DNA of 54,689 nucleotides, from positions 1-54,689 of IMG/VR virus record IMGVR_UViG_3300033047_000013. One strand, given 5' to 3'. Below the pieces are notes generated by a model. The model worked only from the letters and a program-made list of their open reading frames with translations, did no database searches and had not been told where the DNA came from. Positions within the stretch are counted from its first letter, which is position 1. The number at the start of each line of letters is the position of its first letter. This DNA is from a virus. Lineage: Duplodnaviria; Caudoviricetes. A program made the position numbers and the translations under genes. Below, piece after piece: positions 184 through 54,377 of this stretch.

Positions 184-248
184 AACGAGAATTACAGCGG
201 AAGGACTTGATTGAAGCCTTTCCACCGCTTTTAACCCCGCCAGCGTAG
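3..248 (+). CDS. Ala-rich C-terminal part (AAYAADAAAY...AAERELQRKDLIEAFPPLLTPPA) of the gene that starts at 54378 and wraps across the window end
   Basis: The frame starting at base 3 is open to TAG 246-248. It matches the paralog tail at 1822-2121 and lies in the -1 frame relative to the N-terminal part if the junction is exact. Confidence 0.55.
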   Translation, partial: AAYAADAAAYAADAAAYATDAAAAAYAADAAAYAAAARAAAAYAATTAARAAAAYAATAAERELQRKDLIEAFPPLLTPPA

Positions 249-256
249 ACACCACC

Positions 257-279
257 ACCCCCATCAATGGAGACACTCA
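257..279 (+). repeat. 23-bp start-associated repeat ACCCCCATCAATGGAGACACTCA; identical copies at 257, 780, 1058, 1485, 2095, 2421, 2672, 2816, 54352
   Basis: Nine exact copies read by eye. Each ends 1-5 nt before an ATG and contains a GGAG SD. Confidence 0.95.
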
Positions 280-282
280 CCA

Positions 283-807
283 ATGCAAGTAACACTTACC
301 AGAGACCAAATGCAGACGGCTTTTTGTGTGTATTCTCACGCAATGGGCGGCGCGGTCGTGTTCCTGGGTATTTGCCAGATCAGAGACGTGTATAACGCGC
401 CTGATGCGCGTAACAACACGGAATGGGTTAAGATGACCGAGAACAACGCACAAGTGACCGTGACCGTCCTACACGCATCTGAGGACGCCAACGAATGCAT
501 AAATCACCGTTACAAACTGTTCAAAGAGCAAGGGACACCACTTTGCAATCAGCGCGGCCAATTTTACGGCAGCGTGTTGACACATGTAAAATGCATAGAG
601 ACGGGCGAGATTTTTGTATCGCAAGCGGATTGTGCGCGTGTGTTAGGGCTTAATAAGTCGCAATTATGCAATCATTTAAACCGTAATGCAGGTTTTAATT
701 CAGTAAAAGGCCGCACGTTCGAGAAATGTGCAGCACCATCAAACCAAGGCGCACACCCCTTCCAGCGTAGACCGCCACAACCCCCATCAATGGAGACACT
801 CACATGA
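283..807 (+). CDS. Hypothetical protein with C-terminal NUMOD1-like HTH DNA-binding motif
   Basis: VKCIETGEIFVSQADCARVLGLNKSQLCNHL motif; SD supplied by the repeat. Confidence 0.6.
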   Translation: MQVTLTRDQMQTAFCVYSHAMGGAVVFLGICQIRDVYNAPDARNNTEWVKMTENNAQVTVTVLHASEDANECINHRYKLFKEQGTPLCNQRGQFYGSVLTHVKCIETGEIFVSQADCARVLGLNKSQLCNHLNRNAGFNSVKGRTFEKCAAPSNQGAHPFQRRPPQPPSMETLT

Positions 808-1087
808 AAGTTCACACTATAGTAATTCGGAATAAATTGAATGGTAAATTCTTGAGTTTAACAGCAGGATATGACACATCATATGTTCGAGAAGGGGATT
901 TTATCGGAATGTTTGAATCGTTGTTGGTTGCTAATTACATTAGATCACAAATGACCAATAAGAACGATTACGAAGTTTATGCAACTGAAAGTGGTAAACC
1001 TATTCGACTAACCCCATCAAACCAAGGCGCACACCCCTTCCAGCGTAGACCGCCACAACCCCCATCAATGGAGACACTCACATGAAA
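736..1087 (+). repeat. Perfect 74-bp direct repeat (736-809 and 1014-1087)
   Basis: Identical text. It gives two adjacent genes the same C-terminus, PSNQGAHPFQRRPPQPPSMETLT. Confidence 0.9.
804..1085 (+). CDS. Hypothetical protein
   Basis: ORF with repeat SD and ATGA coupling. Confidence 0.7.
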   Translation: MKVHTIVIRNKLNGKFLSLTAGYDTSYVREGDFIGMFESLLVANYIRSQMTNKNDYEVYATESGKPIRLTPSNQGAHPFQRRPPQPPSMETLT

Positions 1088-1366
1088 ACCGATTCCCCTA
1101 TTTGCATTCAGTGCAGACCCGTCCAAGACGAAAAAGATTTATGCCCGTCTTGCAACCTAAGACTCGCTGCAATTCGTGCACAATCAAAACCATCTGTAAT
1201 TGAAAGTAAATTAACAGATGCAGAGAAATACCATCAGAATTGTTTACATGACCTACATGTTGAATATAGGCAAAAAGCTAAGGTTCACATAGACGCACTC
1301 AAAGAAATAGCATCATTAAGACCGCCTTTACCTGTATTTGTAGGAGTAAATCATGAGCAGAATTAA
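1082..1366 (+). CDS. Hypothetical protein with CxxC...CxxC zinc-ribbon motif
   Basis: CIQC and CPSC motifs; repeat SD. Confidence 0.65.
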   Translation: MKTDSPICIQCRPVQDEKDLCPSCNLRLAAIRAQSKPSVIESKLTDAEKYHQNCLHDLHVEYRQKAKVHIDALKEIASLRPPLPVFVGVNHEQN

Positions 1367-1514
1367 AGACTATTACTGGTGCAATAGATGTGACGGTATT
1401 CATAGCCATAGCATTTCATGTGCAGACCATCAACTCGAACAAGACGCACGATATAAAGCCTTGCCAGAACCGGACACCACAACAACCCCCATCAATGGAG
1501 ACACTCAATCATGA
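1353..1514 (+). CDS. Small hypothetical protein (53 aa, Cys/His-rich)
   Basis: Manual translation MSRIKDYYWCNRCDGIHSH...; AGGAG SD; stop overlaps the next ATG. Confidence 0.5.
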   Translation: MSRIKDYYWCNRCDGIHSHSISCADHQLEQDARYKALPEPDTTTTPINGDTQS

Positions 1515-2121: not shown

Positions 2122-2447
2122 TGGAAGATTTTAACAAACGTATGAACGCTTCAATCGACCTGCTTGCTGAGATCGGCGAGACGGTACATGTCGCAACGCT
2201 TAAAGAAGCCATGAAACGACTGAACACCCCCAACAGCGTAGACGCCGACTCTAAACCTGGCGGGCTTGGTAAAGGTGTGGTGTGTGTCGAGACGGGTAAA
2301 GAGTACGAGTCGCAGCGTCAAGCATGTGTAGACCTTGGTGTGACACCTGCCGCACTATGCCACCATCTAAAAGGTCGGACAGGCTACAAAACAGTTCGCG
2401 GCTATACGTTTACACCTGTGACCCCCATCAATGGAGACACTCAGTAA
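2121..2447 (+). CDS. Hypothetical protein with NUMOD1-like HTH
   Basis: VVCVETGKEYESQRQACVDLGV, similar to the 283-807 C-terminus. Confidence 0.6.
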   Translation: MEDFNKRMNASIDLLAEIGETVHVATLKEAMKRLNTPNSVDADSKPGGLGKGVVCVETGKEYESQRQACVDLGVTPAALCHHLKGRTGYKTVRGYTFTPVTPINGDTQ

Positions 2448-2790: not shown

Positions 2791-2843
2791 CACCCCATCA
2801 GCGTAGACCACCACAACCCCCATCAATGGAGACACTCAGTAGC

Positions 2844-3739: not shown

Positions 3740-6130
3740 CTATTCATATCCCTGAGCACGACCGAATGCATTAATATCAGAAGTCCGGTCGATGTGATAC
3801 AACTCTGACTTTGATTCAGCACCTTCTTGAAAGTATGCACGCGGGGATCTACCGAGTGGTTTATATCCAAGGCTTTCACAAATATTACTCACTGCACGGT
3901 TTGATATGCGTTTCATTCCGAGTTCTTTGACGCGCCTATGGACGGCTAAACTGCTCACCCATCCGGCGCAGAACCCTGGTATAGCGTCTTCAACAGCATC
4001 ATATATCAATTGCTCCATTGGTGTCCGGCTAATCCTGATAGCTTCATCAGTGCTCGACGTGTGCGGTGCTCGCATAGGGATGTCACCGCGTTCAATCGGA
4101 TAATTCCATAGATAGTTGGCAATTATAGCCGTACCGTCCGCATCCATCCAATCGTATAATTCTTTGAAATATGCATCGTTCATTCCAAGTCGTATTAAAT
4201 CTTCATATGTTTGTATTTCGAGATAATATACAGCAAAACGGCGGTCATTTTTGGTCGTGGGAATGGCGTCTTTAAAGTTGGAAAAGAACCCCCAATTCGC
4301 CCAATTATCTTCAACCTCTTGGTCTTGACCCTTGGCCTGAACCTCAATTTCTTGCTCGGTTATCATTGGCTTGAGAACTTCGATCATATCGCGGCGGTCA
4401 TCGACTTTGATTTCATCTGCCAGAATGAACAATTTACCGCGCATCCAAGCATTGAATTTTGCACCACTGTCGGCCAAGTCTTTAGCGTTCGGGAAATGCG
4501 TATAAGACCTGCCAATGGAATGTCGTATAATGCGTTTGAACACACCTTTACCCGCACCCTGCTCCGATTGTAACAGCCAAGCCCAAGGAATTTTAAACCC
4601 TGGATATTTTACATTATGAGCAAGGTTGTCCAAGAAGTTTTTTTGGTCGGACTTATCCGGCATTATCAAATCTAAATGACGGTCGAATAGATAAGTGCTA
4701 CCTTCCACGCGCCGCACAATTTGCGGTTTATACGTGTTGATACCTTCCCGTCCGAGTTCATCTTTGATAATCTCACCGAAAGATTGGGACGGCATAAATC
4801 TTATATGGTCGGCCTTGGGAACCTGCCACAGCGTAGACCGCGTAGCGGCTTGCCAAGGCTCGTTGATAAGTTTACCGACCGAATCGATTATGAATTTCTT
4901 ACCGCCGAATTGTGCGTTAAATTGTGATGAATTTAAGAAGCGTACATCTTCGGTCAACATTTTACCAAGGTTGGTGACATAGGTGCATCCTTTAAACCAT
5001 TCCTTTTGTTCAAGGTCACTGAGGATTTCACCACTGCAATCCAACACAGGCGGTTTGCTCAAATCTGGTTGCTCTATGGTAACTGCACCTCGGCTGCATT
5101 GAATACCTTCCGGTGCTTCAACATCACCCATCGGCATAGCGGGAACAGATGGTGTGACAGCAGCTTTAGCTTTTTGTTCACCGAATAACATTTGAGCCTT
5201 AAGTGCGGGCGTCCGACTGACAATAGATTTCCAACCAAGTTCGGTTTCTCGTATGCTTTCCCAATGTTTCAGGTTTTCAGCAACATCATTGTCTTCATAT
5301 CCAGCGCACCACTGCGACCATAAATCATACATATATTCAGGTGTCGCCAGCGTAGACCCCGCTTGTTTGACAGCCGCCATAAGCGCAATCCACTCGCTGT
5401 GCTCTAAATTGTTCGGATCTGTGACTTGTAGAGCGTATATGAGCCATTCCAGTGACGGAGCCGCTAGGTCTGGTTCACCGAGTGGTTTACGGCTCCCTGC
5501 ACCTTCTATGACGTTCACAGCACCCAATGCTTGTTCAAGTGTGCTGACGTTATATTGGAAACCGTGTGCTGCAAGCGGGATAAACGTTACCATGTGCGGA
5601 TTGGTCGGGTCTTTTAAATGCAGTGTACCTGGAAGGCGCATGACGCGGGACGCATCTACAATGGATTTATCACCGTCGAACAGTTGACGTAATTTACGCT
5701 GTAATAATGTAAAGTATTCATTACCAGCGTAGGGTTCGACAGACCAATAAACGTGAAATTTGTTAGGGCTGGTCTGTACTGCAAAACTCGGTGCAGGTTG
5801 CCACTCGGTTGCGCGGTGATAATTCTGCAAAGCTGAGAGATTGTCCAAGTCGATATATTGTGCGCGAATACCAGAGACATTTTCAAGGCGGTAAATCGGT
5901 CTACCTCTGTCGTCTATTTTGTCACCGATCATATTTGCGTTAACAAACATGCCGTAACCTTGTTCCTGATATTGGACTATGGACGGCCAAACATCAGCGA
6001 GTAGACCGCGAAACGGTATAGCCGGAATGTCTTTTCTGACACCGTGAATAGCCCTAAAATCGACCACACTTGTTTCAGGTGGACCAACGAGCGCAGCTAT
6101 AAAAGCATATGATTGATTATAGTCTTGCAT
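3740..6130 (-). CDS. Primase-helicase (RepB-like primase, PriCT-2-like, DUF5906/SF3-like helicase)
   Basis: YIDLD, TSPNKFHVYW, RVMRLPGTLHLK; Walker A QGAGKG and ILADE. Confidence 0.85.
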   Translation of the reverse strand: MQDYNQSYAFIAALVGPPETSVVDFRAIHGVRKDIPAIPFRGLLADVWPSIVQYQEQGYGMFVNANMIGDKIDDRGRPIYRLENVSGIRAQYIDLDNLSALQNYHRATEWQPAPSFAVQTSPNKFHVYWSVEPYAGNEYFTLLQRKLRQLFDGDKSIVDASRVMRLPGTLHLKDPTNPHMVTFIPLAAHGFQYNVSTLEQALGAVNVIEGAGSRKPLGEPDLAAPSLEWLIYALQVTDPNNLEHSEWIALMAAVKQAGSTLATPEYMYDLWSQWCAGYEDNDVAENLKHWESIRETELGWKSIVSRTPALKAQMLFGEQKAKAAVTPSVPAMPMGDVEAPEGIQCSRGAVTIEQPDLSKPPVLDCSGEILSDLEQKEWFKGCTYVTNLGKMLTEDVRFLNSSQFNAQFGGKKFIIDSVGKLINEPWQAATRSTLWQVPKADHIRFMPSQSFGEIIKDELGREGINTYKPQIVRRVEGSTYLFDRHLDLIMPDKSDQKNFLDNLAHNVKYPGFKIPWAWLLQSEQGAGKGVFKRIIRHSIGRSYTHFPNAKDLADSGAKFNAWMRGKLFILADEIKVDDRRDMIEVLKPMITEQEIEVQAKGQDQEVEDNWANWGFFSNFKDAIPTTKNDRRFAVYYLEIQTYEDLIRLGMNDAYFKELYDWMDADGTAIIANYLWNYPIERGDIPMRAPHTSSTDEAIRISRTPMEQLIYDAVEDAIPGFCAGWVSSLAVHRRVKELGMKRISNRAVSNICESLGYKPLGRSPRAYFQEGAESKSELYHIDRTSDINAFGRAQGYE

Positions 6131-11187: not shown

Positions 11188-11463
11188 TTAAATATCAGCA
11201 AACCACTCAGCACGTTCCAACGGTTCAATGTGTAGAATAGCGGGATGATCGTCACAAATTAAAAGACGCATAACGCGCGTATCACCTGTATCAACTGCAT
11301 GTTTTGCAACGGATTCTCTAAGTGCTCCTGTTCCTGGAAAATGATGTAAAATAGCCGAGTGAGTCATGTTACATGCACCTGCAACCGATCGAGATGATAT
11401 GGTCGGCCAACAGCGTAGACCCGCATTTAATATCTTCAATTTTGTATCGTCTGACTTACTCAT
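11188..11463 (-). CDS. TetR-like HTH protein
   Basis: TKLKILNAGL...SSRSVAGACNMTHSAILHHFP. Confidence 0.7.
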   Translation of the reverse strand: MSKSDDTKLKILNAGLRCWPTISSRSVAGACNMTHSAILHHFPGTGALRESVAKHAVDTGDTRVMRLLICDDHPAILHIEPLERAEWFADI

Positions 11464-12106: not shown

Positions 12107-14823
12107 TTGTCATTCCATCCTTCTACGGTTGCTGCTAGTTTTTCCATTTCTACGCGCGATAATGTCATAGCAGTGAGGACATCGACCTGCGCTGTCAAAT
12201 AAAATCTTCTGTACGATTCTTGGTCTGCACGTCCGAGATGTTGCTGTATTCCAGCCCATTGATTGATTGCAACGGTCAAGCGTTGTTGCGCTTGGTGCTT
12301 CTCAATCTGTCGGTTTACATGACCCTTAGCGGCGTAGACCGGAACACCAGACGCCGCAATCCTCTGACCGACTGACATAGGGCTTTCCAAGATAGCCGCT
12401 TGCATCATTTGTGCGATTGTTTCCCTGTCCATAAGTACCAAATCACCATCAACATGCTCTATGGAACGCGCTGCGCCCATCGGAACAGGTTCGTGACCAC
12501 AGTAAGGGCAAACGGCGTGAAACTTCTCATACGGGCGTGAGCAGCCACGACAAGCGGTTAAAGGTATGTCTTCGGGGTCTGGTTCACGCTTCCCGCGCTT
12601 CTCGCGCCTATCAAGCGTCCAAATGTGTGCTTTGTCGGGAAATCCGTGACGTTTCCAATTGCTCACATGGTCGATAATCAGGCCGTATAGTTTACCTTCC
12701 ATGAGCCTAAGAGCACGACCGAATTGCTGCAAATAGACACCGAGAGATGCAGTAGGTCGAGCCATGATGACAACTTCAACGGCGGGGCAGTCAAATCCTT
12801 CACCGAACAGATCCACATTAACCAATATTTTGATTTTATCTTCCCTGAACTGGCGAATGTGGTGTGCTCGTGTCTCTGCTGGTGTTTTTGCAGATATGGA
12901 AACCGCATTAATTCCAGCAGCTTTAAACTGTTCAGCAATTTTACCAGATGTTTCAACATCAGTAGCGAAACATATTGCCCGTTTGCCGGATGCCAATTTG
13001 ACATATTCGTCTACCACATTTCCGACAATGTGTGATTTCTCGGACGCCATTTTCATCTTTTGACGACTGTAATCGCCCGTAGCAGTCACCGCCGAATCAT
13101 CAATTATGAAATCTGTTTCAGGTATGGCAATTTGATAATCGGACAGTGAACCCATTTCGATCAGTTGTCGCATGGTCGGACCTGTCACCATTTCGTCATA
13201 CAAACCATCGTGGTGACGACCAAGACCCTGACCGTCCGCTCTCTGTGGTGTGGCTGTCACGCCGAGACCGTTGGCGTTCTTGAACATGTTTGCAACTCGA
13301 CCCCATTTATTAGGTGTCGTATTCCATACGGTTTCAGGCGTTTGACTTATAACTGCGCCAATGGCGTGATGACCTTCATCAATTGTCCAATCATCAATCT
13401 GTTCAGCCCAATCTTTAAGTTCGGCACGTCTTGCCCAAATCGTATCGACACCGCCGACACTACAATTTGATGTAGGATCTACAAAGTTCCGACCGAACTC
13501 GCGACGATGGTCTTGTCTGATCGCGTTGATGACATTCTTTGGTGCGATAATCCGGTGCTTGATGCCGCGTTGTGCTATGTGCATTGACATTTGACTGACT
13601 AGTTCGGTTCTATGAGCAATGACACACTGCGTTGCACCGAGCATGTGTTTGTCGAGCACGATGTCAGAAATTACGACAGAGTTGTGAACAACCGTGAAAT
13701 CAGCAAGCAAGAATAAACTATCATTACCCTGTACTTCAAACCCAAAATATTCACCAACACCAACAGGTTCAACAGAGATGCCAACATTCAATACATTTTT
13801 CTTCTGTTTGCGTGGACGTGCTTTTTTACGTTCTAAAATGCAGGGTATTTTTTCTATATTTCCTGATATTACACACCTAAAGTAAGTTCCTACGACTCCG
13901 TTATTCACACAAGTTTTGGATACTTTTCTTTTATATGCGCTGAACCCAAGCGACCGAGCAACAAATATTAAATCATCTAACAGTTTTTCGGATTTCAAAC
14001 AAATGTCATAACCTTTACCAGTGTAATAACCGTCTGAATCCATTAAACCTGCAAGAAGTTGCAACCTTTGTTTTTCCGATGCTGTTTTGTAATTGTGAGG
14101 TATGTGCTTATTTCGGTATAGGTTTTCACATTTTAAAAACTTCAACAATGGATTGTTACGTGGTTGTTTTCCAATAATGTTAACTGTTTGCGCTTTATTG
14201 TTTGGCTTTCTTGCAAAGGAGCATTTCAAACCAACCTTTTCAGCATATTCGATTAAATATTCCACAATAGGAGCGTCCTTTGTGGTTACTGCTGTATTCC
14301 GCGCAGTTCCATCACCGAGCCATAAACCGAGCCAATACGGATCATATTGTAAATCTTGCGGTGTTTCAAAGTTTACACCACTGCGCCAACCTTTGTGAAC
14401 ATGTTTGAAATTTTTAGATTTATTAATATATTCTTTAACGGGAATGTTTACAATGGAACCACCTAATTTTTGACAAGGATATTTCGGTTTGCTTCTTAAA
14501 TTAGTCATCCTAAGAGATAAAACATGCTCTGAATTTACGATATAAGAAGCACCTTTTACAGGGGTAATCTCATACATTTGATCCATACCAGAATGGAGAT
14601 TAACAACTTTTCTGGTTTTACCATCTGGTCCCATGACATGTTCACCAACCGTAATTGTTTCAACGGTTTTAACAGTGCCGTCATGCATCAAAACTTCCGT
14701 ACCACGCTTGAAACACTTACCCCCACCTGTCGGGAGCACCATCAGGACGTTTTTATGACCTGCGTTCCAAGAGTTATAAATACCTTGTTTGAGATCGGCT
14801 TGATATGGTCTGAGAATTATCAT
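12094..14823 (-). CDS. SF2 DEAD/DEAH-like DNA helicase containing an intein
   Basis: LRPYQ, PTGGGK/S, IDEGHH, VTATP, EGFD, QQFGRALR, C-terminal zinc finger. Confidence 0.92.
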   Translation of the reverse strand: MIILRPYQADLKQGIYNSWNAGHKNVLMVLPTGGGKCFKRGTEVLMHDGTVKTVETITVGEHVMGPDGKTRKVVNLHSGMDQMYEITPVKGASYIVNSEHVLSLRMTNLRSKPKYPCQKLGGSIVNIPVKEYINKSKNFKHVHKGWRSGVNFETPQDLQYDPYWLGLWLGDGTARNTAVTTKDAPIVEYLIEYAEKVGLKCSFARKPNNKAQTVNIIGKQPRNNPLLKFLKCENLYRNKHIPHNYKTASEKQRLQLLAGLMDSDGYYTGKGYDICLKSEKLLDDLIFVARSLGFSAYKRKVSKTCVNNGVVGTYFRCVISGNIEKIPCILERKKARPRKQKKNVLNVGISVEPVGVGEYFGFEVQGNDSLFLLADFTVVHNSVVISDIVLDKHMLGATQCVIAHRTELVSQMSMHIAQRGIKHRIIAPKNVINAIRQDHRREFGRNFVDPTSNCSVGGVDTIWARRAELKDWAEQIDDWTIDEGHHAIGAVISQTPETVWNTTPNKWGRVANMFKNANGLGVTATPQRADGQGLGRHHDGLYDEMVTGPTMRQLIEMGSLSDYQIAIPETDFIIDDSAVTATGDYSRQKMKMASEKSHIVGNVVDEYVKLASGKRAICFATDVETSGKIAEQFKAAGINAVSISAKTPAETRAHHIRQFREDKIKILVNVDLFGEGFDCPAVEVVIMARPTASLGVYLQQFGRALRLMEGKLYGLIIDHVSNWKRHGFPDKAHIWTLDRREKRGKREPDPEDIPLTACRGCSRPYEKFHAVCPYCGHEPVPMGAARSIEHVDGDLVLMDRETIAQMMQAAILESPMSVGQRIAASGVPVYAAKGHVNRQIEKHQAQQRLTVAINQWAGIQQHLGRADQESYRRFYLTAQVDVLTAMTLSRVEMEKLAATVEGWNDKWMI
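13681..14715 (-). mobile_element. Intein (345 aa) with LAGLIDADG homing endonuclease, inserted in Walker A
   Basis: GGGK|CFKRGT...VVHN|S; LGLWLGDG and LAGLMDSDG motifs. Confidence 0.92.
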
Positions 14824-17724: not shown

Positions 17725-18537
17725 ATGAAATGCACATTAACAATTACCGCCAGCACAACGACATTGGCTTCACTTTTGTCGATTATCGAAAATTACGATG
17801 TAGAAGTCAAAACCGCTCCATCGGTAGATGAACCTGTAAACACTACTGTAATTGTCGAACAGACACCCATCAGCGTAGAATCAGTTATTGTTGAACAACC
17901 AATCGCTCCGGTCACACCAGTTGTCGCGCCGACACCTGCCAGCGTAGACGCAGAATTGGATGCAAACGGTATTCCTTGGGATGATCGCATTCACGCCAAA
18001 ACTAAAGCGCGTGTTAAAGATGATACATGGCGTAAAAAGCGTGGTGTTGATGATGTGATTTATGAATCCGTCGTAGCCGAACTTAAAGCTTCTGTCGCTC
18101 CGGCAATGCCAACGGGTGATGCTCCGGTGGTTCCAGTAGTTGAACAACCTGTCGCACCTGTGGTTCCAGTAACACCACCAATGCCGAACGGTGATACAGT
18201 CGTCCCAAACGCACCAGTGACGGACCCTGTCGTTTCTGTGGCTCCGACAGTTGCCCCGACCCCTGCTCCGGTAGCGGATATTGTGCAGCCAGTAGAACCT
18301 GTTACTGCACAGCCTGTGGCGGCGGGGTCTGTTGACTTCAACGGTTTCATGCAAACGCTTGGTAAAAACATGCAGACCAACCCTACCAAAGTGAATACCA
18401 TTTATCTGACCACAATTAAAGATGAAATCGGGACGGCTTTTAATACGTCATTGAGCGCAATTACCGACATCGCCGCAAATCCGGCGATGATTGATTACGC
18501 TATTCAGTTAATGCAACGCGACAACACTTGGGCATAG
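17725..18537 (+). CDS. Pro/Val-rich phage protein
   Basis: ELDANGIPWDDRIHAKTK...WRKKRGV motif, typical of genes upstream of DUF2800. Confidence 0.75.
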   Translation: MKCTLTITASTTTLASLLSIIENYDVEVKTAPSVDEPVNTTVIVEQTPISVESVIVEQPIAPVTPVVAPTPASVDAELDANGIPWDDRIHAKTKARVKDDTWRKKRGVDDVIYESVVAELKASVAPAMPTGDAPVVPVVEQPVAPVVPVTPPMPNGDTVVPNAPVTDPVVSVAPTVAPTPAPVADIVQPVEPVTAQPVAAGSVDFNGFMQTLGKNMQTNPTKVNTIYLTTIKDEIGTAFNTSLSAITDIAANPAMIDYAIQLMQRDNTWA

Positions 18538-38085: not shown

Positions 38086-39315
38086 TTAACCAAGCAACAC
38101 AGCAATATGTTCCGGTTTAACGGCTTTGACACCCCAAGCTGCGGAAACTTCTGCTCGGATTTTACGATACCCTGCATAAAGAGCAATTTCAAAAGCCATA
38201 CCCGAACGTGGGTCTGTAAGCATCATACGGTCAATTGCTGCATCACCTTCAACCGGAAGGGCTGGTGCTCGCATTGCAAGTTGCATGGCGCTACGAACAA
38301 AACCAACATTAGCTTCATAAGTCGCACCAATTGTAATCGCTGTGGTGGATGTGGCAATTGCCACACGAAGACCAGGTTCAGCGAGTGTGATTGTACCACC
38401 GTTTGAAACATCGGAATCACCAGAAGCGATCATATATTTGTTTGTGTCTCCGGCAAAAGTCACTGCATCACCTGCTAAGACAGTACCAGTACCAGCAGAA
38501 GCCAGTGTGATGACGGTAGCACCGACAGCATAACCAGCATTATCAGTCGTAGCAGATGAACCTGTACCTTTTGTATGCGTGACAGATTGACCACTTTCTT
38601 TAATTGAGAAACCTGCAAGATTAAGTATCTCACCTTGGCGAAGCGTCATGTTCGTACCAGCTTCATTAGCTTTGGTTAACTGTCCTAATGTGCGAAGGGC
38701 TGCACCTGCTGTTGTATTGATGACTTGTGAGCGATCGGACGGAGCCGCGCCATTATCATCAAGGATTTTACGCAATTGAGCGGCGTCACCAACGGTAGAA
38801 GCATACGGCGTAGTGCCAGCAGTACCAGTAGCACGACATGCATTTGCAGTAATTTCCACAGCAACATCAAGTTCAATTTCATTTGTTAAGGTTCGTAGAC
38901 CTTGTGCAAAATTATCAGCCTGAATAGAGAGATAACCAGGCCCGTTGTTTAGACCTTTTTGTTCCTCACCTGTCCAACCAAAAGCAACACCTCTTGATTT
39001 GGTGATTGTCATTGTACCATTTCCGATAGTTTGATCTGCTGGTTCGGGGATTGCCATTGCTGGAGTAATGTTAAAGGCGGCGGCTGCTGGTACAACAGGC
39101 CATACGATTGATTCACCAACCGATGCACGTTCAGCAGTTGAATCGCGAGCCACGGACGGGATGAACCCTACGAGTTCGCGGGAGATTACATCAAGACCTG
39201 CATATAAATCAGGAATCAGACGTGTAAGAGTATTTGCGTAGACAGAGTTGTGAATGATCGCTGGTGCAGCGCTCAGAGCCAACATTGCCATTAGTTTTTG
39301 ATTGAGTTGGGACAT
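38086..39315 (-). CDS. Major capsid protein (P22 coat-like family) with N-terminal leader
   Basis: ANTLT.LIPDLYAGLDVISRELVG...WGVKAVKPEH; follows the scaffold gene. Confidence 0.85.
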   Translation of the reverse strand: MSQLNQKLMAMLALSAAPAIIHNSVYANTLTRLIPDLYAGLDVISRELVGFIPSVARDSTAERASVGESIVWPVVPAAAAFNITPAMAIPEPADQTIGNGTMTITKSRGVAFGWTGEEQKGLNNGPGYLSIQADNFAQGLRTLTNEIELDVAVEITANACRATGTAGTTPYASTVGDAAQLRKILDDNGAAPSDRSQVINTTAGAALRTLGQLTKANEAGTNMTLRQGEILNLAGFSIKESGQSVTHTKGTGSSATTDNAGYAVGATVITLASAGTGTVLAGDAVTFAGDTNKYMIASGDSDVSNGGTITLAEPGLRVAIATSTTAITIGATYEANVGFVRSAMQLAMRAPALPVEGDAAIDRMMLTDPRSGMAFEIALYAGYRKIRAEVSAAWGVKAVKPEHIAVLLG

Positions 39316-42282: not shown

Positions 42283-42718
42283 TTGTCAATCCCTTTAATC
42301 GTTCCTCAAGACCAGCGTAGAACGCCTTATCTGCTGCACTGTTTCGATTAGCCGATGCAAGCGCAGTTGCATTGTTTTCTTGTGTTTTTAGTAATGTTTC
42401 AGATGCCAGTTTAGCGGCATCTGCATTTTGTTTCATGTGTGCCGCAACTTGACCTTTAGCCGTATCTCGATCCGTCTGACACGATTCAAGTAAAGCTTTC
42501 TTTTCCTTAGCATCTGATAAAGCAAGACCAAGGTCGGTTTCAAGCGTGTTGATATAAACAGCTTTGGATGCGACCCCTTTATTGAAGTTTGATACTGCAT
42601 GATATTTTATTACACCAAGCAAAGCGACCATAATGAGCAATCCACCAATACCTTTAGCAGCTAAAGCTTGTGGTCCGGAAAGACCCTTCATCAAAGCACC
42701 TGCAAATTTAAACATCAT
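42200..42718 (-). CDS. Inner-membrane spanin (Rz-like)
   Basis: N-terminal TM plus coiled coil, after the endolysin. Confidence 0.65.
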   Translation of the reverse strand: MMFKFAGALMKGLSGPQALAAKGIGGLLIMVALLGVIKYHAVSNFNKGVASKAVYINTLETDLGLALSDAKEKKALLESCQTDRDTAKGQVAAHMKQNADAAKLASETLLKTQENNATALASANRNSAADKAFYAGLEERLKGLTNVCDENGNSVVRGGADLLRDVRNRRKR

Positions 42719-43671: not shown

Positions 43672-43690
43672 ATTCGTCTCCGATGTTTGT

Positions 43691-43765
43691 CAGCGTAGGT
43701 TGGATTCGAACCAACGCCATCGCAACTAAATGAGTCACGCAATCTGACCACTGATATACTACGCT
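43691..43765 (-). tRNA. Atypical tRNA or tRNA-like gene (Met/CAT-derived?) with 2 extra nt in the anticodon arm
   Basis: Acceptor AGCGTAG/CTACGCT; D-loop AGTGGTCA; T arm GTTGG-TTCGAAT-CCAAC; anticodon arm CGTGA-CTCATTTAG-TTGCG; no encoded CCA. Confidence 0.7.
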
Positions 43766-43784
43766 ATAATTTGGTTGTGGTTAT

Positions 43785-44971: not shown

Positions 44972-46708
44972 TTAATATCTACCTGTGTACGCTTGACCGG
45001 AATCTTCTGGCATTGGGAAGAATGCCATAATACCGCTATCTGCCAAATCTGGTGATTTCGTTCCATCCGGTTTCTTTTCAATGATTGTACGCAAGCCCGT
45101 TGAACTTCCGCGCGTTGGTTGTGCCAGTTCCTTCATAAGCTGCATCAGGAGCGGCATTGTACCGTCAAGTGATATGAGTTCCTCTGGCTTATAAACAATA
45201 CCCTCTGTAACCGCCTTGTGTGTCTTATAGAAACGGGTTCGGACGCTCCACCATGCTTGGGCTTTCATGTTGCCGAACATATCTTTGTTAAGCAGACTTT
45301 CATCATCATCTTCAACGATACGCGCGAACGGATTGATGACCTTACCACCCGCATTCCAAGGTATCATGCGAATACCGTTCAACTCGACCTCGGAATCATC
45401 AACCAAACGATTGAACTCGGCTTTCACAGTCGCGCCGATGCTGACAACATCATATTGGATTTTAAGGTCTCTGATATGACGACAGGTATCTATTGCGCGG
45501 CGAGTGGTGACACCAACATCACGCGACCCCCATTCCTCTACACTGCGCCATATAATCCACTGGCGTAGAGTCAGAGCGTTCCGGTCAATACCTTCGTCTG
45601 CCAAATCAAGACCAGCACCCCAATTATTAGGTATCTCGGATGGGTGACAGCGTAGATATGGAATCTTCAAATGAGCATCAACAGCCGCTTGAATCCATTC
45701 ATATTTAATCAACGTGTTCTGAACCGATGCACTGTAATTACGCTCAACCTCTTGCGCGAAGATGTGTTGCATCCCTTCGCGCTCTGATTTGGCTTTCCGT
45801 TTGTCATACCATTCTTGGTTTTTCTCAGGATGGTGCGACCAATCAATTATGAACACCCTCGTAAAACCCGATTCAATCGGTTCGCTGTCCGGAGACCATT
45901 CAATCCCAGCTTCACGCTTACGGTGGAACACATTACCCAATCCGTTAACTGATGAAATATCAACCTGGCAATTGGTGTTGTCACCGAGCGCCGCTTCAAT
46001 CAATTCCGGTCGTTCATAATGCGCCGCTTCATCTTTAAAATACAAAGCAGTACGACCACCACGTCCAATCGCATCGCCTGTTTCACCTGTAATGGACGAA
46101 CCGTTTTCAGGATTGATGAACTTCATAAACGTTGCATGTTTGCGAGCGCTGAAATTGTCCGGCATCCATATATCAGGTAAACGTTCTATGATCTTACGCA
46201 TTTTCTCAAAGATACTGGACGTATCGCCAATCTTGTCCACCAACTCTTGCTTTCGCGAACCCCAACCAATTGCATCGTCATCAATGAACAACCATGACCA
46301 TATGGAATACCCACATGCGAGCCATGTCGCACCAGCATCACGACATTTCTCAATCAGACCACTTTCGCCGTGCTCACGCAATTCATGCAGGAAGTCGATA
46401 AATTCTAACTGTCGTGTGAAAAATACGAACGGCATCCACTTGTTATCGGCTTTACGCGGGTTATAAGTGTCCATCCAATGCATAATGAACTCGGCTGGAC
46501 GGGTTTTATAATATGTGTGAGCCGACCCCATCATCACAGGGTCTTGGCGTAACTTCTGCAATGTCTGAATACGCCATGTGTAGACACCTTTATAATCAGG
46601 TGGCCAATCGGAATGGTTCAAAGCGTGAGGTTTCCAAGGGGTTACAGCACCAAACGCTTTCAGGCGTTCTTGCCAACCGAACAAATCTGCTTGTTGCTGA
46701 AAAAACAT
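44972..46708 (-). CDS. terL: Terminase large subunit
   Basis: IEKCRDAGATW, GRGGR...KDEAA, GLDLADEG.D, KSPDLADS. Confidence 0.9.
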   Translation of the reverse strand: MFFQQQADLFGWQERLKAFGAVTPWKPHALNHSDWPPDYKGVYTWRIQTLQKLRQDPVMMGSAHTYYKTRPAEFIMHWMDTYNPRKADNKWMPFVFFTRQLEFIDFLHELREHGESGLIEKCRDAGATWLACGYSIWSWLFIDDDAIGWGSRKQELVDKIGDTSSIFEKMRKIIERLPDIWMPDNFSARKHATFMKFINPENGSSITGETGDAIGRGGRTALYFKDEAAHYERPELIEAALGDNTNCQVDISSVNGLGNVFHRKREAGIEWSPDSEPIESGFTRVFIIDWSHHPEKNQEWYDKRKAKSEREGMQHIFAQEVERNYSASVQNTLIKYEWIQAAVDAHLKIPYLRCHPSEIPNNWGAGLDLADEGIDRNALTLRQWIIWRSVEEWGSRDVGVTTRRAIDTCRHIRDLKIQYDVVSIGATVKAEFNRLVDDSEVELNGIRMIPWNAGGKVINPFARIVEDDDESLLNKDMFGNMKAQAWWSVRTRFYKTHKAVTEGIVYKPEELISLDGTMPLLMQLMKELAQPTRGSSTGLRTIIEKKPDGTKSPDLADSGIMAFFPMPEDSGQAYTGRY

Positions 46709-48061: not shown

Positions 48062-48364
48062 TTAGTCTTTGTCTCGACCGATACCGTCATCATCGTCGCC
48101 AGACGGGGAGAGGGCTTTGTTCTTAAGCGCATTTTCAAGTCGAGCAGCCGCGTCATGCGATTTAATCATGTTCTCAGCCGCATCACCGAGATTCCCGATG
48201 GTTTTTAACATGGGAGCCATGTCACGTACAATCTGATAATCGCTTGCACCCATCGTAGACGCCAATTTAATACCGTCAATTACGAGTTTGCATTGTTGTC
48301 TAGCAAGCAGTACCAGCGTAGATTCTTGTACTACCATAGTGCCTTTAATATGATCAGGGTTCAT
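48062..48364 (-). CDS. Hypothetical protein
   Basis: ATGA-coupled start MNPDHIK. Confidence 0.6.
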   Translation of the reverse strand: MNPDHIKGTMVVQESTLVLLARQQCKLVIDGIKLASTMGASDYQIVRDMAPMLKTIGNLGDAAENMIKSHDAAARLENALKNKALSPSGDDDDGIGRDKD

Positions 48365-49094: not shown

Positions 49095-49799
49095 CTATCC
49101 AAGTAAAGCAGCATACGCATCGGCTGCGTCCGCTACGCTTGATTTATCTGTTATAGCGGTTGGACGGCGCTGTGATTGATCAAAATGTAGATTCTCAGGC
49201 TCTACGATACCCATATATTTAGCCAACATCTCAATCGCCTTCAATTTATCATGCGTCACAATCTTAACCCGCCGACCCTTTTTTACATCCTCTATATGCT
49301 CCCACGACTTAAGAGCCGCCAGTTGCTCCGGCGTACACGCTGTAAAATCATACTCAGGAATACCCCATTCATTAATCTTAAAGTAGTCCGACAAATTAGA
49401 AAACGCTATGGTCGTCAACTCCTTAATAACCCTCTGTACCGACAACTCAGCATTCGCCGCCAACTCATTGACTCGCTCGGTTATAGCAGCCTTCACCATC
49501 GGACGCTCAAGAAGCCCTCTCGACTGTTCCATGACAGAGCGGGAGATGGGTCGATACAATGCATTGGAAATCCGGTCATTGCGCTTATGAGCATCACGCT
49601 CAAGATGCGTCACATACCCGTCCACAAACGACCTCTCGGACGGGGTGAGTTGTTTATAGGCACTCAGCAGCGCGAGAGTGTTGGACGGGGTGAGTTGTTT
49701 ATAGGCACTCAGCAGCGCGAGAGTGTTGGACGGGGTGGTCGCTCCGTTGAGGGTGGTCGGTGCGGGTGATGCTTCCGTATGTGTCAATGAATTGGTCAT
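49095..49799 (-). CDS. terS: Terminase small subunit
   Basis: LTPSERSFVDGY, LLERPMVKAAI, RVIKELTTIAFSN, DKLKAIEMLAKYMG. Confidence 0.85.
   Translation of the reverse strand: MTNSLTHTEASPAPTTLNGATTPSNTLALLSAYKQLTPSNTLALLSAYKQLTPSERSFVDGYVTHLERDAHKRNDRISNALYRPISRSVMEQSRGLLERPMVKAAITERVNELAANAELSVQRVIKELTTIAFSNLSDYFKINEWGIPEYDFTACTPEQLAALKSWEHIEDVKKGRRVKIVTHDKLKAIEMLAKYMGIVEPENLHFDQSQRRPTAITDKSSVADAADAYAALLG
49638..49737. repeat. Perfect 45-bp tandem duplication (2.2 copies) in terS
   Basis: TPSNTLALLSAYKQL occurs twice. Confidence 0.9.
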
Positions 49800-50885: not shown

Positions 50886-51483
50886 TTTATAACCCTTTTG
50901 TTTCTATAACCATAATATTCCATAAAATAGGTATATTGTCAAGCGTATAATTTATGTAATTCTTATAATGTTTATGGACTATCATAATTTATGTAATTAG
51001 GCGTTAAATTATGTAATTAAAACACTCTCGAATCTGAACTGCTAGTCTGAGCGTTTACTATAATCCTTATAACGACATATAACATACTATATAGAATCTG
51101 CTGGCTATTCGATTATGAAACTAACTTATTGAGAAAAGTAAGAAAAACACCATTGAAATCATTACACTTTTTAATTACATAATATTACATAATATTATGT
51201 AATAAACCGACAATTTACTATAATTTACTATAATTAAAACCCACTAGAATGTGCCTTAATTCAAATTGCTATAATTACATAATATTACATAAATTACATA
51301 AACCCGTCGCCTATTACATAATTCCTCACATATTTACATAATAAACGCTTGCACCTATTCTATATTTATGTAATATTATGGCATGGATAAAGGACGTAAT
51401 ATAATTATAGTAATATGGTTAATTGCCGCAATACTAAGCGCATTAACGTCCCATGTTTACAGTAAATTAAAAAGGATTATAAA

Positions 51484-51914: not shown

Positions 51915-52025
51915 AATGACGTTATTCAATATAAAAACAACTGATAAAACCTTGCAATCTTTAACGGGATTCCAGGTTTTGAATCACTATAAAGAATCGC
52001 CTGTTTACAAGCGGGTTTTTGGGAA

Positions 52026-52151
52026 TTATATACTTGACTTCCGTTTCTTGGGTTTTTCCTTTTCCAAGCGCGGTTTACGGGCACCCTTTGGGTTGTAGTT
52101 AAACACAGTTTTCGAGACCTTATCCAAAACCGCTATTATTTTTTTTGTCAT
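52026..52151 (-). CDS. 41-aa basic ORF downstream of the transposase
   Basis: MTKKIIAVLDKVSKTVFNYNPKG...; ATGA-coupled; stop lies in the IR. Confidence 0.45.
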   Translation of the reverse strand: MTKKIIAVLDKVSKTVFNYNPKGARKPRLEKEKPKKRKSSI

Positions 52152-53067
52152 GATGTGAGCCTTTTGTAAGTTATTCGTTTTCCATCGCTCATTTGCAACA
52201 ATGAGTCCATTCGTGCGAGTGTGTGTCTTTTAACGTCACCCTCATTCAACCTAAAAGTAAATTCGTTTATATATCTGCCCAAGTGTTTTGGGCTGGCGTG
52301 GTGGTAAACCCCGTGAAGCCCACGCTTCATAACGGCGAAAACGCTTTCAATACCATTTGTTGTAACATTGTCGCGAACATATTCACCTGCACTATGATTG
52401 ATGCTCTCATGCGTGTAAAACAACCCTCCAATCGGATTGTAAATAGGGCTTTCGTCTGTAAAAATGGTTGTGTTGGGTTTGATGTGTTTCAAAGCAAAAC
52501 CTAAAGCGTTTCGGCCGGTGACAGGTTGAATTACCTCTGCTTTTACTCGACCCCCGCGTTGGCGAGCGGCAATGACGGGTGTTTTTCCGATCGTTCCGCG
52601 ACCTCTTTTTTGTTTTTTACTTTGTGTTTTGCTCCCTCTTTGCCGCCAATGTAAACTTCATCAATTTCTACAATTCCGGACAACTGGTGTGGATCATCAC
52701 CACATGCCTCACGCAATCTTTGCAACATAAACCACGCGGTTTTTTGTGTGACACCTAATTGTTTTGATAACTGAACACTGCTTATCCCCTTTCGGGCAGT
52801 GACAAAAAGATACATTGCATAGAGCCATTTATGCAATCCAACCTTACTTCTCTCAAAAACTGTATTTGTTCTAACGGTAAATACTTTTAAATCTGCATTG
52901 CATTTATAATACCCCTCGCCTCGGGAATATATCCGTTCTTTTTCTCCACAATGCGGACAGACCACCCCGTCCGGCCAGCGGCGATCTTCCATGTATAACC
53001 GTGCAGTTTCTTGGTCAGGAAACATCTCGAAAAGTTCAAATGTTGATATAGTAGATTTACTCATCAC
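52148..53067 (-). CDS. IS1595-family DDE transposase split by one -1 frameshift near 52605-52625
   Basis: CPHCG zinc ribbon, VEIDEVYIGG; -1 frame KRGRGTIGKTPV...FTDE...INHS...TNGIES...YINEFTFR. Confidence 0.85.
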
Positions 53068-53383
53068 AAATCACCCGCAACAAAGCCATTGCGCCGGCAA
53101 TTTCTGCGGCACCTTTGGGTAATGGGTCGTACTGGTCAAATGTGGCCTCAAGATTACTCCACGCGGCGTGGCGAATGCCGTCCAAATCCATTATATGCTC
53201 TGCGTATTCCGCTGCATCTTCGATTTGGACGAACCTATCTGCTAACATCTCCCACACGCCTTGTGGTGCTTCTTGTTTATTTTGGAACCATCGCTTTACT
53301 GTGTCCGGGTTAACTCCGAAAAACTCTGCAGCCCCAGTTTTTGTGAGGCCACAGATGAAACATGCAGTTTGAAATGTGCTCAT
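53057..53383 (-). CDS. HTH protein, IS passenger
   Basis: GLTKTGAAEFFGVNPDTVKRW...APQGVW. Confidence 0.7.
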   Translation of the reverse strand: MSTFQTACFICGLTKTGAAEFFGVNPDTVKRWFQNKQEAPQGVWEMLADRFVQIEDAAEYAEHIMDLDGIRHAAWSNLEATFDQYDPLPKGAAEIAGAMALLRVICDE

Positions 53384-53868
53384 TATATATAACCCTCCAA
53401 ATCTTCACCAATAATATTAATTACGGCTGATAGGTCTTGACCTTCCCAAACAAAATCAACATCCGCCCCACCCGTTTGAGCGCGACCCGTCCAATCTGAA
53501 CCTAGGTGGTGGTCAGAAATTCTAACAACAATGTCATTAAATCTTATGTACAGACTGGTATTTTCATTGTGCGTAATCTTCCAGCCCAATTTCTTAGACA
53601 GCCGACGCACCGCCCGCATAATCCTTAGATAATTTGCATCGGCGTTAAGCATTTTCAACGCATTTGTCGCAACACCGCAATGATCGTCATATCCGCAATT
53701 AACTACAAATTCGATAGCTTCGTTTTCGGTCAAGTTACGAACAGGCACGTGGTCACAGCAGTCATCACCGCCCTCACAATCATCTTCGTGGTATAAATAG
53801 TCATTGTCTGTCAGAAAAACGCAGTTGCTGCCAGCCGACCATATTGTATATGTTATGGATTTTGTCAT
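53383..53868 (-). CDS. Acidic hypothetical protein, IS passenger
   Basis: ORF downstream of an inward TTGACT promoter in the right IR; SLY...VRISDH motif. Confidence 0.65.
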   Translation of the reverse strand: MTKSITYTIWSAGSNCVFLTDNDYLYHEDDCEGGDDCCDHVPVRNLTENEAIEFVVNCGYDDHCGVATNALKMLNADANYLRIMRAVRRLSKKLGWKITHNENTSLYIRFNDIVVRISDHHLGSDWTGRAQTGGADVDFVWEGQDLSAVINIIGEDLEGYI

Positions 53869-54001
53869 TTTAAAACTCTCTTTTAGTTTTGTGCGGTGAG
53901 CCAATCTCTCCGTCTATAACTATTGTATACGCTTTCTAAATTCGAAAGTCAAGTATATAATTCCCTAAATTTAACCACTGAGCAAATAGAGAGGACTCGC
54001 A

Positions 54002-54193
54002 ATGACTAACGAACAAAACAAAACACTAACTAAATTGAATGTTATATGTGACTTTGTGCAAAATAATAAACCAAATGAATCGGACAAAGCGCGCTGGCAA
54101 CATTATATAAATGTTAAAACCCTTTTGACGGATATGCGCACAAATTTATTTAGTCAAATAAAACCAGAAGCGGGTTTATTGGATTTAATGTAA
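54002..54193 (+). CDS. Hypothetical protein
   Basis: GAGGA SD. Confidence 0.6.
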   Translation: MTNEQNKTLTKLNVICDFVQNNKPNESDKARWQHYINVKTLLTDMRTNLFSQIKPEAGLLDLM

Positions 54194-54377
54194 TATTATA
54201 ACATAACATCTGATTTGCAACCGAAAATTGCAAAAATGACCGATTCAGCCCAAAATTGCACACCCCTTCGGCGTAGACGCCGGAACCCCTTCCAGCGTAG
54301 ACCCCCACATTTAATACTTGACACATTATTTGACTATGTTATGATAATTTAACCCCCATCAATGGAGACACTCAACT

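Follow-up and report, generated by a model that had tools for sequence, protein, structure and literature searches.

The word GCGTAGAC is strongly enriched, occurs strictly on one strand whatever the orientation or frame of the gene around it, and is unevenly spread in the window, that is, in the whole stretch of 54,689 nucleotides analysed here, which is a complete 54.7-kb siphovirus record of seawater origin. We tentatively propose, mainly by analogy with phages whose DNA is known to be nicked, that [C/T][A/G]GCGTAGA[C/A/T] is recognised by a phage-encoded activity which nicks one specific strand or marks it in a similar way, a reading that we regard as possible rather than probable. The word occurs 15 times on the plus strand and never on the minus strand (mean of 100 dinucleotide shuffles 0.77, maximum 4), in agreement with the first-pass annotation, whose 15 coordinates are all exact plus-strand copies with none missed and which had found no minus-strand copy where fewer than one was expected by chance. 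Its count of ten copies that extend to the 10-nt form CAGCGTAGAC is equally upheld. A reversed control word is absent from both strands. When one mismatch to CAGCGTAGAC is allowed, all 19 matches lie on the plus strand (expected 1.33, maximum 7); the near-matches listed earlier at 17871, 42313, 45648 and 48314 indeed share this orientation, and a further one lies at 48251. The k-mer count against a Markov background that had been suggested as a check places GCGTAGAC (15 plus, 0 minus) with AGCGTAGA (17 and 1) and CAGCGTAG (17 and 0) as the three most over-represented of all 8-mers in an unbiased order-3 scan, with z of about 16.5-16.9, and GCGTAGAC leads the 8-mers in strand bias; a partial match of CAGCGTAG at 43691 is to be discounted, as it overlaps a tRNA gene on the opposite strand.

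Neither codon usage nor the early repeats account for the enrichment, and the refuting outcome named in the first-pass annotation, similar minus-strand counts or loss of the excess once the repeats are collapsed, did not arise. In the region 3440-54000, from which these repeats are excluded, GCGTAGAC still occurs eight times on the plus strand and not on the minus strand, as compared to 0.58 expected from 300 synonymous-codon shuffles (maximum 3), and CAGCGTAG is found 11 and 0 times (0.65 expected). Outside the early region CAGCGTAGAC with zero, one and two mismatches occurs 4, 8 and 14 times on the plus strand, where 0.08, 1.37 and 13.6 are expected, and there is no one-mismatch form on the minus strand; the excess is thus limited to exact and one-mismatch forms. 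The copies at 765 and 1043 are not independent, because both lie in a 74-nt perfect repeat. As noted before, the word is present in sense genes, antisense genes and intergenic DNA, and the antisense copies use all three frames, being read as VYA, STL or LRC. Ten of the 15 copies are bare words that lack conserved flanks and reside in genes of either orientation, seven of them antisense within minus-strand genes at synonymous sites. The C-rich run that had been seen in front of the word is real (A at -10, C-rich from -9 to -5), and C-A directly precedes the word, at -2/-1, in 12 of 15 copies. These findings support the view that the word is an oriented signal read at the DNA level and no codon or repeat artefact.

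Overall the word reaches 274 copies per Mb in the phage. The density peak described from 54.2 kb to 5.4 kb is borne out, as nine of the 15 copies fall within 54271-5357 across the record junction, a stretch of 5.8 kb that makes up 11% of the genome; along the larger part of the genome, copies are 5-8 kb apart (Table 1). Nowhere on the circle does a copy change strand, not even across the putative origin at 51.2-51.4 kb: all are on the plus strand.

Table 1. Plus-strand copies of the word, their one-mismatch forms and the promoter-like site beside the tandem pair
Position	Strand	Element	Setting
241..250	+	CAGCGTAGAC	intercistronic cassette; word end 32 nt 5' of ATG 283
763..772	+	CAGCGTAGAC	74-nt perfect repeat 736-809; word end 31 nt 5' of ATG 804
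1041..1050	+	CAGCGTAGAC	74-nt perfect repeat 1014-1087; word end 31 nt 5' of ATG 1082
2234..2243	+	CAGCGTAGAC	within early + strand ORF 2121-2447
2799..2808	+	CAGCGTAGAC	diverged early cassette 2772-2845
4829..4838	+	CAGCGTAGAC	bare; antisense to primase-helicase gene (3740-6130, -)
5348..5357	+	CAGCGTAGAC	bare; antisense to primase-helicase gene (3740-6130, -)
11411..11420	+	CAGCGTAGAC	bare; antisense to ORF 11188-11463 (-)
12330..12339	+	CGGCGTAGAC	bare; antisense to intein-bearing helicase gene (12094-14823, -)
17871..17880	+	CAGCGTAGAA, one mismatch	
17940..17949	+	CAGCGTAGAC	bare; sense strand of ORF 17725-18537 (+)
24674..24683	+	TAGCGTAGAC	bare; antisense to 739-aa ORF (23538-25757, -)
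31579..31588	+	TAGCGTAGAC	bare; antisense to tape-measure gene (29624-32431, -)
39236..39243	+	GCGTAGAC	bare; antisense to ORF 38086-39315 (-)
42313..42322	+	CAGCGTAGAA, one mismatch	
45648..45657	+	CAGCGTAGAT, one mismatch	antisense to terL
48251..48260	+	CATCGTAGAC, one mismatch	
48314..48323	+	CAGCGTAGAT, one mismatch	
54271..54278	+	GCGTAGAC (as CGGCGTAGAC)	first of tandem pair 24 nt apart; about -75 of early promoter
54293..54302	+	CAGCGTAGAC	second of tandem pair; about -50 of early promoter
54318..54345	+	TTGACA, 16 nt, TG-extended TATGAT (11/12)	best sigma-70-type promoter-like site of the region

The first-pass annotation had offered four functions of an oriented DNA signal, namely nicking, translocation or ejection, primase loading and nuclease protection, with no choice among them. 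The oriented signal itself stands, and of these functions nicking fits best, because the signature matches that of experimentally nicked phages almost point for point, while Chi-type protection and primase loading find no support. The closest likeness is to the LUZ24-like phages. In phage tf, TACTRTGMC occurs 14 times, exclusively on the top strand, and each copy is described as nicked; if one substitution is tolerated there are 17 sites, again all on that strand, and 11 of the 14 sites lie in one genome half, with converging transcription units (PMC3517423). Rembedalsseter has 13 nicks at WACTRTGAC where 0.7 sites would be expected per 45 kb, and of 542 sites reported for 61 phages, which crowd one side, 88% fall within coding regions of either strand (PMC11780129). 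Both there and here an asymmetric word of 9-10 nt occurs in 13-15 copies on one strand where less than one is expected, its one-mismatch forms keep to that strand, and the sites fall in genes of either orientation and crowd one part of a genome whose transcription units are opposed. Different from these phages, however, ours is a siphovirus related to Rhizobium phage P106B and 9NA-like phages, it uses another word that no relative shares whereas theirs is common to 61 phages, some of its copies form part of early-gene cassettes and lie next to the early promoter, and nicking is putative.

Similar parallels, with similar limits, exist to two other groups. In phiKMV-like phages, whose nick consensus is CGACxxxxxCCTA/CTCCGG (PMC3517423), the sites likewise keep to a single strand, which for most genes is the non-coding one, and have a longer, bipartite-looking context, which in our phage would be the C-run plus the core word; yet they number only 3-4 per genome, and the consensus is group-conserved and different in sequence. 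T5, a siphovirus too, has all interruptions on one strand, major sites next to many weaker near-consensus sites, and a site near the first-expressed end. Its consensus, R/GCGCRGG (quoted in PMC3517423), is also present on the intact strand and therefore needs extra context, in contrast to the zero opposite-strand copies found here, and the T5 genome is more than twice as large and shares no word with ours. By eye, the word resembles none of the three nick consensus sequences quoted in PMC3517423. Knowledge of site-specific one-strand nicks goes back about 50 years for T5 and less far for phiKMV-like and LUZ24-like phages; their purpose is described as unsolved even there (PMC3517423, PMC11780129).

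How might such a system work? The word, mostly following a C-rich run, would be recognised by a sequence- and strand-specific activity of this phage, most likely a nickase, and the plus strand of packaged DNA would then contain ligatable single-strand interruptions; each word would thus be cut or otherwise marked. The polarity would be uniform because the duplex would be severed if both strands had sites. On the minus strand, one-mismatch forms of the 8-mer are weakly depleted (6 versus 12.3 expected, p ~0.035, not corrected for multiple tests), as expected if opposite-strand sites were selected against. The plus strand is the non-template strand for the early operon and the template strand for most middle and late genes, so that interruptions in it may spare early transcription until they are sealed. 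A search of the phage genes turned up no nickase candidate: the sole annotated small endonuclease (11460-11849) is conserved in nine of 11 relatives compared, which do not share the word, and no nuclease domain was found in the lineage-specific ORFs. Besides this negative result, it speaks against nicking that the five cassette-borne copies also suggest a role in expression, and that the tf and phiKMV groups keep their word among relatives whereas here the relatives do not.

These five copies belong to repeated early-operon cassettes, in intercistronic or promoter-proximal position; two of them, the tandem pair 54271/54293, lie directly upstream of the promoter-like site of Table 1, which is probably the main early promoter, with a predicted transcript start at the leader at 54352. 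The word might be a signal on plus-strand transcripts or for a regulator of plus-strand transcription, such as a binding or processing site on early mRNA or at the early promoter, with the copies in minus-strand genes acting on read-through antisense transcripts from a strong early promoter. The fixed place of four copies, 31-32 nt 5' of start codons in intercistronic cassettes, the tandem copies some 50 and 75 nt upstream of the best promoter-like site, the sense that every copy shares with the early operon and the C-rich upstream context all speak for this explanation, as does the fact that the one-strand repeats of the relatives are long promoter-like intergenic elements. We nevertheless consider it unlikely: the bare copies, above all those at synonymous sites of minus-strand genes, do not fit, a protein-binding operator would need no single orientation within genes, there is no match to an Rfam family and no common structure, and four of the eight early leaders compared lack the word, which is hence not needed for translation starts. 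A promoter specific for a phage RNA polymerase or sigma factor was rejected, since seven bare copies are antisense in minus-strand genes; the scanned ORFs yielded no RNA polymerase.

Uniform polarity would also suit one-way replication, and the phage primase-helicase has a RepB_primase domain. RepB' primases of the RSF1010 type act at specific single-strand initiation sites. The word could be a priming or replication signal that a RepB-type primase-helicase recognises on the lagging-strand template when a rolling-circle fork moves one way, with the copies crowded near the start; 3 kb ahead of the dense zone there is an iteron-like ATTACATAAT cluster (51.17-51.38 kb). Because the polarity does not switch at the putative origin, such a signal would not be compatible with two-way replication. 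The proposed primase loading, however, gains no support from structure: 11 sites folded as single-stranded DNA yield no consistent hairpin (z from -2.84 to +0.40, one significant). Moreover, the primase is found in relatives at 41-54% identity without the word, and intervals of 5-8 kb, as seen along most of the genome, are long for Okazaki priming. We therefore judge priming quite unlikely.

Chi and KOPS are, like our word, oriented over-represented 8-nt words with polarity; unlike it, they belong to the host, are over-used in its chromosome and change strand at the origin and terminus. A host-type signal of the Chi kind would attenuate RecBCD or AddAB entering from one end or from a rolling-circle tail. 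The length, the strict polarity, partial activity of near-matches and the roughly even spacing over most of the genome would resemble Chi, and the likely host class, Alphaproteobacteria, is mostly without described Chi. Yet the word is over-used in none of 425 sampled bacterial genomes (as stated, five candidate-clade genomes, 301 Gammaproteobacteria and 121 Alphaproteobacteria), a sample outside which the true host may lie. The maximum is 165 copies in 2.6 Mb among the Gammaproteobacteria (about 63 per Mb, 2.2 times the control word) and about 33 per Mb among the Alphaproteobacteria, and in most of the sampled genomes the word is rarer than the reversed control word. Nor would clustering within early cassettes be expected, and if P22-type packaging from terS to terL is assumed, the word would be in the inactive orientation for a nuclease entering the cut end. 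Nuclease protection of this kind, as suggested earlier, thus appears improbable. KOPS-type guidance or another replication-oriented skewed word finds no support, as the polarity does not switch round the circle.

Next to terL, ORF 44066-44914 has a PAPS_reduct domain (E 7e-5) and weakly matches the SspD model (E 1e-8, 33 bits), so that the word could mark a strand-specific covalent modification such as one-strand phosphorothioation. The single-strand phosphorothioation of Ssp systems targets C-C-A, and C-A precedes most copies of the word. But the SspD match reflects a shared fold and is far under the curated cut-offs, and one relative (G006) has a homologue of this ORF at 43% identity but lacks the word, which makes modification highly improbable. 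SspA, SspB and SspC partners were not found among the ORFs scanned; of a full SspABCD or DndABCDE set, only this weak SspD- or PAPS-reductase-like ORF was found. In phage T7 all EcoP15I sites are on one strand, which evades Type III restriction. T7 thus offers another asymmetric word with every copy on one strand, but evasion accounts only for a word missing from one strand, whereas here the other strand has a 20-fold excess at synonymous sites.

But why would a word so strictly ordered in this phage be missing from its kin? It is private to the phage and not conserved among related phages: ten near-complete relatives contain three copies in total, carried by two of them, 52 TerL loci have at most one copy each, and no equivalent bare in-gene one-strand word was found in the relatives. 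Kin that lack the word show 50-65% protein identity to this phage, and a search for a closer relative found none. The phage is publicly represented only by assembled contigs of seawater metagenomes; cassette number and order in 0.1-2.7 kb depend on repeat resolution, as these contigs break at the repeats. It is conceivable, though we think it quite doubtful, that the word is a private oriented self-mark which is read chromosome-wide and in one direction by a lineage-specific enzyme or tells phage from host DNA. As relatives at this distance lack such a system, its acquisition would be recent. Strand interruptions that spare the early template could then, for example, time the switch from early to late transcription; alternatively, the mark would separate phage from host DNA for a nuclease or translocase.

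The set position of copies, between cistrons of the early operon and next to its promoter, gives a new hint that such words are tied to early expression. If the word is not a nick site, it is an unexplained and strongly selected oriented DNA signal. If it is a self-mark, the phage and its kin would offer a rare natural before-and-after comparison for the purpose of one-strand marks. If, as we favour, it marks nicks, the phenomenon would extend to a marine siphovirus lineage with a new word, one lineage could gain such a system while close kin are without it, and the search for the enzyme would narrow to a few dozen lineage-specific genes, giving a comparative handle on the function of these interruptions.

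The DNA word GCGTAGAC occurs 15 times on the + strand of the window and not once on the - strand, whereas shuffled sequences contain 0.77 copies on average and no more than 4 in 100 shuffles; the positions and polarity that the first-pass annotation had read by eye are thus exact. As had also been noted there, ten copies extend to CAGCGTAGAC and near-matches point the same way: all 19 matches to the longer form with up to one mismatch (1.33 expected) lie on the + strand. An unbiased scan of all 8-mers per strand against an order-3 Markov background places the overlapping words AGCGTAGA (17/1), CAGCGTAG (17/0) and GCGTAGAC (15/0) at the top, with z of about 16.5-16.9, and the remaining top-ranked 8-mers come from a coding tandem repeat and from the early ribosome-binding leader. 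The core CGTAGA is invariant in 19 of 19 matches and GCGTAGA is kept in all except the one at 48251, variation being found in the two 5' letters, the third letter (once) and the last letter. Upstream, the context consists of A at -10, the previously noticed C-rich run, now placed at -9 to -5, and C-A at -2/-1; two G/C positions follow downstream, and by eye CGC stands 0-3 nt after GCGTAGA in 10 of the 15 copies. The excess is limited to the exact and one-mismatch forms (two-mismatch forms, 14 versus 13.6 expected). On the - strand exact and one-mismatch 10-mers are absent, and one-mismatch 8-mers number 6 versus 12.3 expected, as low a count being seen in about 3.5% of shuffles.

Could this excess be a by-product of repeats or of codon usage? 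The copies at 243, 765, 1043, 2801 and 54295 each sit in a diverged version of a cassette closed by the leader ACCCCCATCAATGGAGACACTCA plus a start codon, those at 765 and 1043 sharing a 74-nt perfect repeat. Word and leader are separable, since four of the eight early leaders listed lack the word. The 23-nt leader itself, which carries a Shine-Dalgarno sequence and stands immediately 5' of early-gene start codons in nine copies (see table), represents an unusually strict conservation of the translation-initiation region over one operon. Ten further copies are bare, that is, without the cassette, and have unrelated flanks: seven are antisense in - strand genes (in three frames), two fall within + strand genes and one between genes. 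By our own arithmetic, the two-sided binomial probability of ten independent bare copies falling on one strand is about 0.002. In a codon-aware null, in which synonymous codons were shuffled 300 times within each gene so that proteins and codon usage are kept, region 3440-54000 holds 0.58 words on the + strand (maximum 3 in 300) versus the 8 observed, and 0.65 versus 11 for CAGCGTAG. Enrichment therefore persists with the early repeats excluded, and the earlier argument that a word found in genes of both strands and in intergenic DNA is no codon effect is borne out. The word is a real, strongly selected and strictly one-strand DNA word.

Its density peaks, as proposed, from about 54.2 kb through 5.4 kb, with nine of the 15 copies in the stretch that leads from 54271 over the junction of the record to 5357. 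The others follow at spacings of 0.9 to 7.7 kb as far as 39236, and from 39.3 to 54.2 kb only one-mismatch forms are found. The region's strongest sigma-70-type candidate, which matches at 11 of 12 positions and pairs TTGACA (54318) with a TG-extended TATGAT over a 16-nt spacer, follows immediately downstream of the tandem pair 54271 and 54295 and so puts these copies at about -75 and -50; a transcript from this putative early promoter would begin at the first leader. From here to about 3.4 kb the + strand carries the early operon; the majority of the remaining genes are on the - strand, and coding sequence amounts to 37.0 kb on - versus 14.8 kb on +. The word thus lies on the non-template strand early and on the template strand for most middle and late genes. 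That it is a signal tied to transcription in the + direction is unlikely. As for promoters, the copies lying antisense within genes misfit them, and the ORFs scanned include no phage RNA polymerase.

We regard a host Chi-like signal as very improbable. A TerL profile run against bacterial assemblies found its best relatives among MAGs of Alphaproteobacteria and among contigs of marine Glaciecola and Paraglaciecola MAGs, and the GapR-like gene, by the range of its family, also hints at an alphaproteobacterial host. The phage carries 274 words per Mb. In five genomes of candidate clades, by comparison, the reversed control outnumbers the word two- to fourteen-fold; among 301 Gammaproteobacteria the word reaches at most about 63 per Mb (165 copies in a 2.6-Mb genome), which is 2.2 times the control, and among 121 Alphaproteobacteria the maximum is about 33 per Mb. 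Four of the genomes counted carry an unpublished flag (G058, G160, G315 and G359); none of them is an outlier, and the tallies give the same result without them. Enrichment in a host genome, for which a test had been suggested, is accordingly not seen in the sampled bacteria, outside which the true host may fall, and the idea of a host word of Chi or KOPS type gains no support. Replichore-type skew is ruled out, because polarity does not change across the iteron-like cluster at 51.17-51.38 kb, which resembles an origin more than any other feature of the window; the ATTACATAAT copies there look like iterons or operators of a candidate origin or control region. Chi as a family trait was considered and rejected, the E. 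coli Chi octamer being present 0/3 times in the window and showing no enrichment. In the relatives G002-G004, GCTGGTG skew tracks gene-strand bias.

A priming signal of the ssi type also seems quite unlikely: 11 sites folded as single strands share no hairpin (z -2.84 to +0.40). An Rfam scan returned tRNA only. Of the oriented DNA signal first envisaged, the orientation withstands the codon-aware null; the Chi/KOPS and primase-loading options gain no support from the host tallies and the folds, respectively. There is only a small likelihood that the word marks a strand-specific modification, in favour of which speak the C-A before it and a PAPS-reductase-like ORF, adjoining terL, that weakly matches SspD (33 bits).

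Searches with TerL identified 52 IMG/VR loci as relatives (36-69% identity), each with at most one copy of the word. Ten near-complete relatives hold three copies in total, and in six relatives whose entire records were scanned by k-mer no bare word of this sort turned up; the one-strand repeats of these six are long, intergenic, promoter-like elements in 6-7 copies. In G001 (L061-L063, about 26.4-54.2 kb) and G002 (L064-L066, about 24.7-47.2 kb) the 6-7 one-strand copies belong to conserved intergenic elements of about 50 nt around TCTAATGG and CAAGAGTTATTTT, respectively, which resemble phage-specific modules of promoter or operator type. Searching metagenome contigs with the primase gave no closer relative; the 23-nt leader has no match in these contigs, nor word plus leader in IMG/VR. 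Two word copies 5-35 nt apart occur in at least 116 IMG/VR loci, and the best 8 of the loci listed, by number of copies, carry only local tandem or coding repeats unrelated to the phage. Because the IMG/VR, metagenome and relative scans gave no other comparable carrier, the word appears, within the data covered, to be restricted to this phage.

GCGTAG is missing from G011, G013 and G014, the closest relatives of equal G+C; its active avoidance was rejected, general GTAG/CTAC and GTAC depletion being sufficient explanation. Together with G012 (L082-L084), these relatives (L079-L081, L088 and L089) show extreme word avoidance at the G+C of the window. G011 has 0 GTAC versus 56 expected and 3 GAATC versus 118. 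CCCGG, CCGCGG, GGCGCC, GCCGGC and other palindromes stand at zero or close to it; the window itself avoids GAATTC, CTGAAG, GTCGAC and AGCTC. Such avoidance probably reflects restriction, and that of GAATC may be tied to GANTC systems.

The 54,689-bp record is rated 100% complete and lacks end repeats. An ORF starting at 54378 continues in frame across the junction to 210 and has a near-identical paralogue in ORF 1511-2071, in both of which CTGCTGCTTATG-type tandem repeats code for a long Leu/Met-rich stretch behind a conserved N-terminal domain. Since the record was opened inside this tandem repeat of early paralogues, it is probably a circular assembly of a circular or circularly permuted genome. 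The nearest cultured phages are the Rhizobium phages P106B and RHph_X2_24 (TerL 61-63%, polymerase 59% identity), followed by 9NA/Sasha-like siphoviruses at about 43%. Public runs with the phage are three seawater metagenome runs of a single study, stored as contigs, with no RNA run listed; the likely source run has about 100x depth, and contigs break at the leader repeats. A divergent 151-nt contig of one run, X3, spans site 5348, and is uninformative on conservation because differences near contig ends are unlisted. The split transposase is an insertion sequence or remnant within a lytic-type phage genome.

Table. Features of the phage genome
Feature	Position	Strand	Remarks
Leader copies	257-279, 780-802, 1058-1080, 1485-1507, 2095-2117, 2421-2443, 2672-2694, 2816-2838, 54352-54374		
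Small endonuclease	11460-11849		core gene, kept in 9 of 11 relatives compared, all without the word
SNF2/DEAD-type helicase gene with intein	12094-14823	-	Hint and LAGLIDADG homing-endonuclease domains near N-terminus
Gp2.5-like SSB gene, C-terminal part	20289-20380, 20432-20529		perfect 30-bp tandem arrays (3.1 and 3.3 copies)
GapR-like DNA-binding protein	20662-21093		PF10073, E 1.8e-26; missing in 11 of 11 relatives compared
tRNA gene	43689-43766	-	ARAGORN tRNA-Asn, unusual anticodon ATT; Rfam tRNA match 44 bits
PAPS-reductase-like ORF	44066-44914	-	homologue only in G006 among relatives compared
Small terminase gene, tandem repeat	49638-49737		perfect 45-bp repeat, 2.2 copies; candidate packaging-recognition feature
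AT-rich intergenic region	51170-51385		GC about 0.35; many direct and inverted ATTACATAAT copies
IS1595/ISXO2-type transposase, split	52148-52492, 52543-53067	-	Zn-ribbon, HTH and DDE start in one ORF, remaining DDE in the other
Tape-measure protein, portal, large and small terminase			encoded
Primase-helicase, archaeo-eukaryotic type			encoded
DNA polymerase, Gp2.5-like single-strand binding protein, PD-(D/E)XK exonuclease			encoded
Two CcrM-like methyltransferases			encoded

What, then, might the word be for? We tentatively favour, at somewhat less than even likelihood, the reading that a strand-specific activity encoded by the phage would nick or mark the DNA at this word. In PMC3517423, phage tf carries TACTRTGMC 14 times on the top strand only, each site nicked; 17 of 17 sites within one substitution lie on that strand, 11 of 14 in one half, and transcription units are convergent. 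The same paper describes one-strand consensus sites peculiar to T5 and to phiKMV-like phages, and viable T5 mutants without nicks, the function of the nicks being unknown. Phage Rembedalsseter, in PMC11780129, has 13 nicks at WACTRTGAC versus 0.7 expected, a word common to 61 phages; its sites cluster on one side and fall mainly within coding regions of either strand. An enzyme that would read the present word was looked for in vain: about 55 ORFs (Pfam, PHROGs, PADLOC, NCBIfam), with two orphan ORFs also compared with the atlas, gave no nuclease beyond the core endonuclease, the PD-(D/E)XK exonuclease and the intein endonuclease, and the lineage-specific ORFs, located in 7.3-11.2, 20.7-21.5, 41.9-44.9, 46.8-49.1 and 50-54 kb, showed no nuclease domain. 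Searches of the newer phage-nickase literature yielded nothing on this phage group and no report of nicks for P106B or 9NA-like phages. At the level of sequence, the present word shares all features of the nick-word class apart from conservation among relatives.
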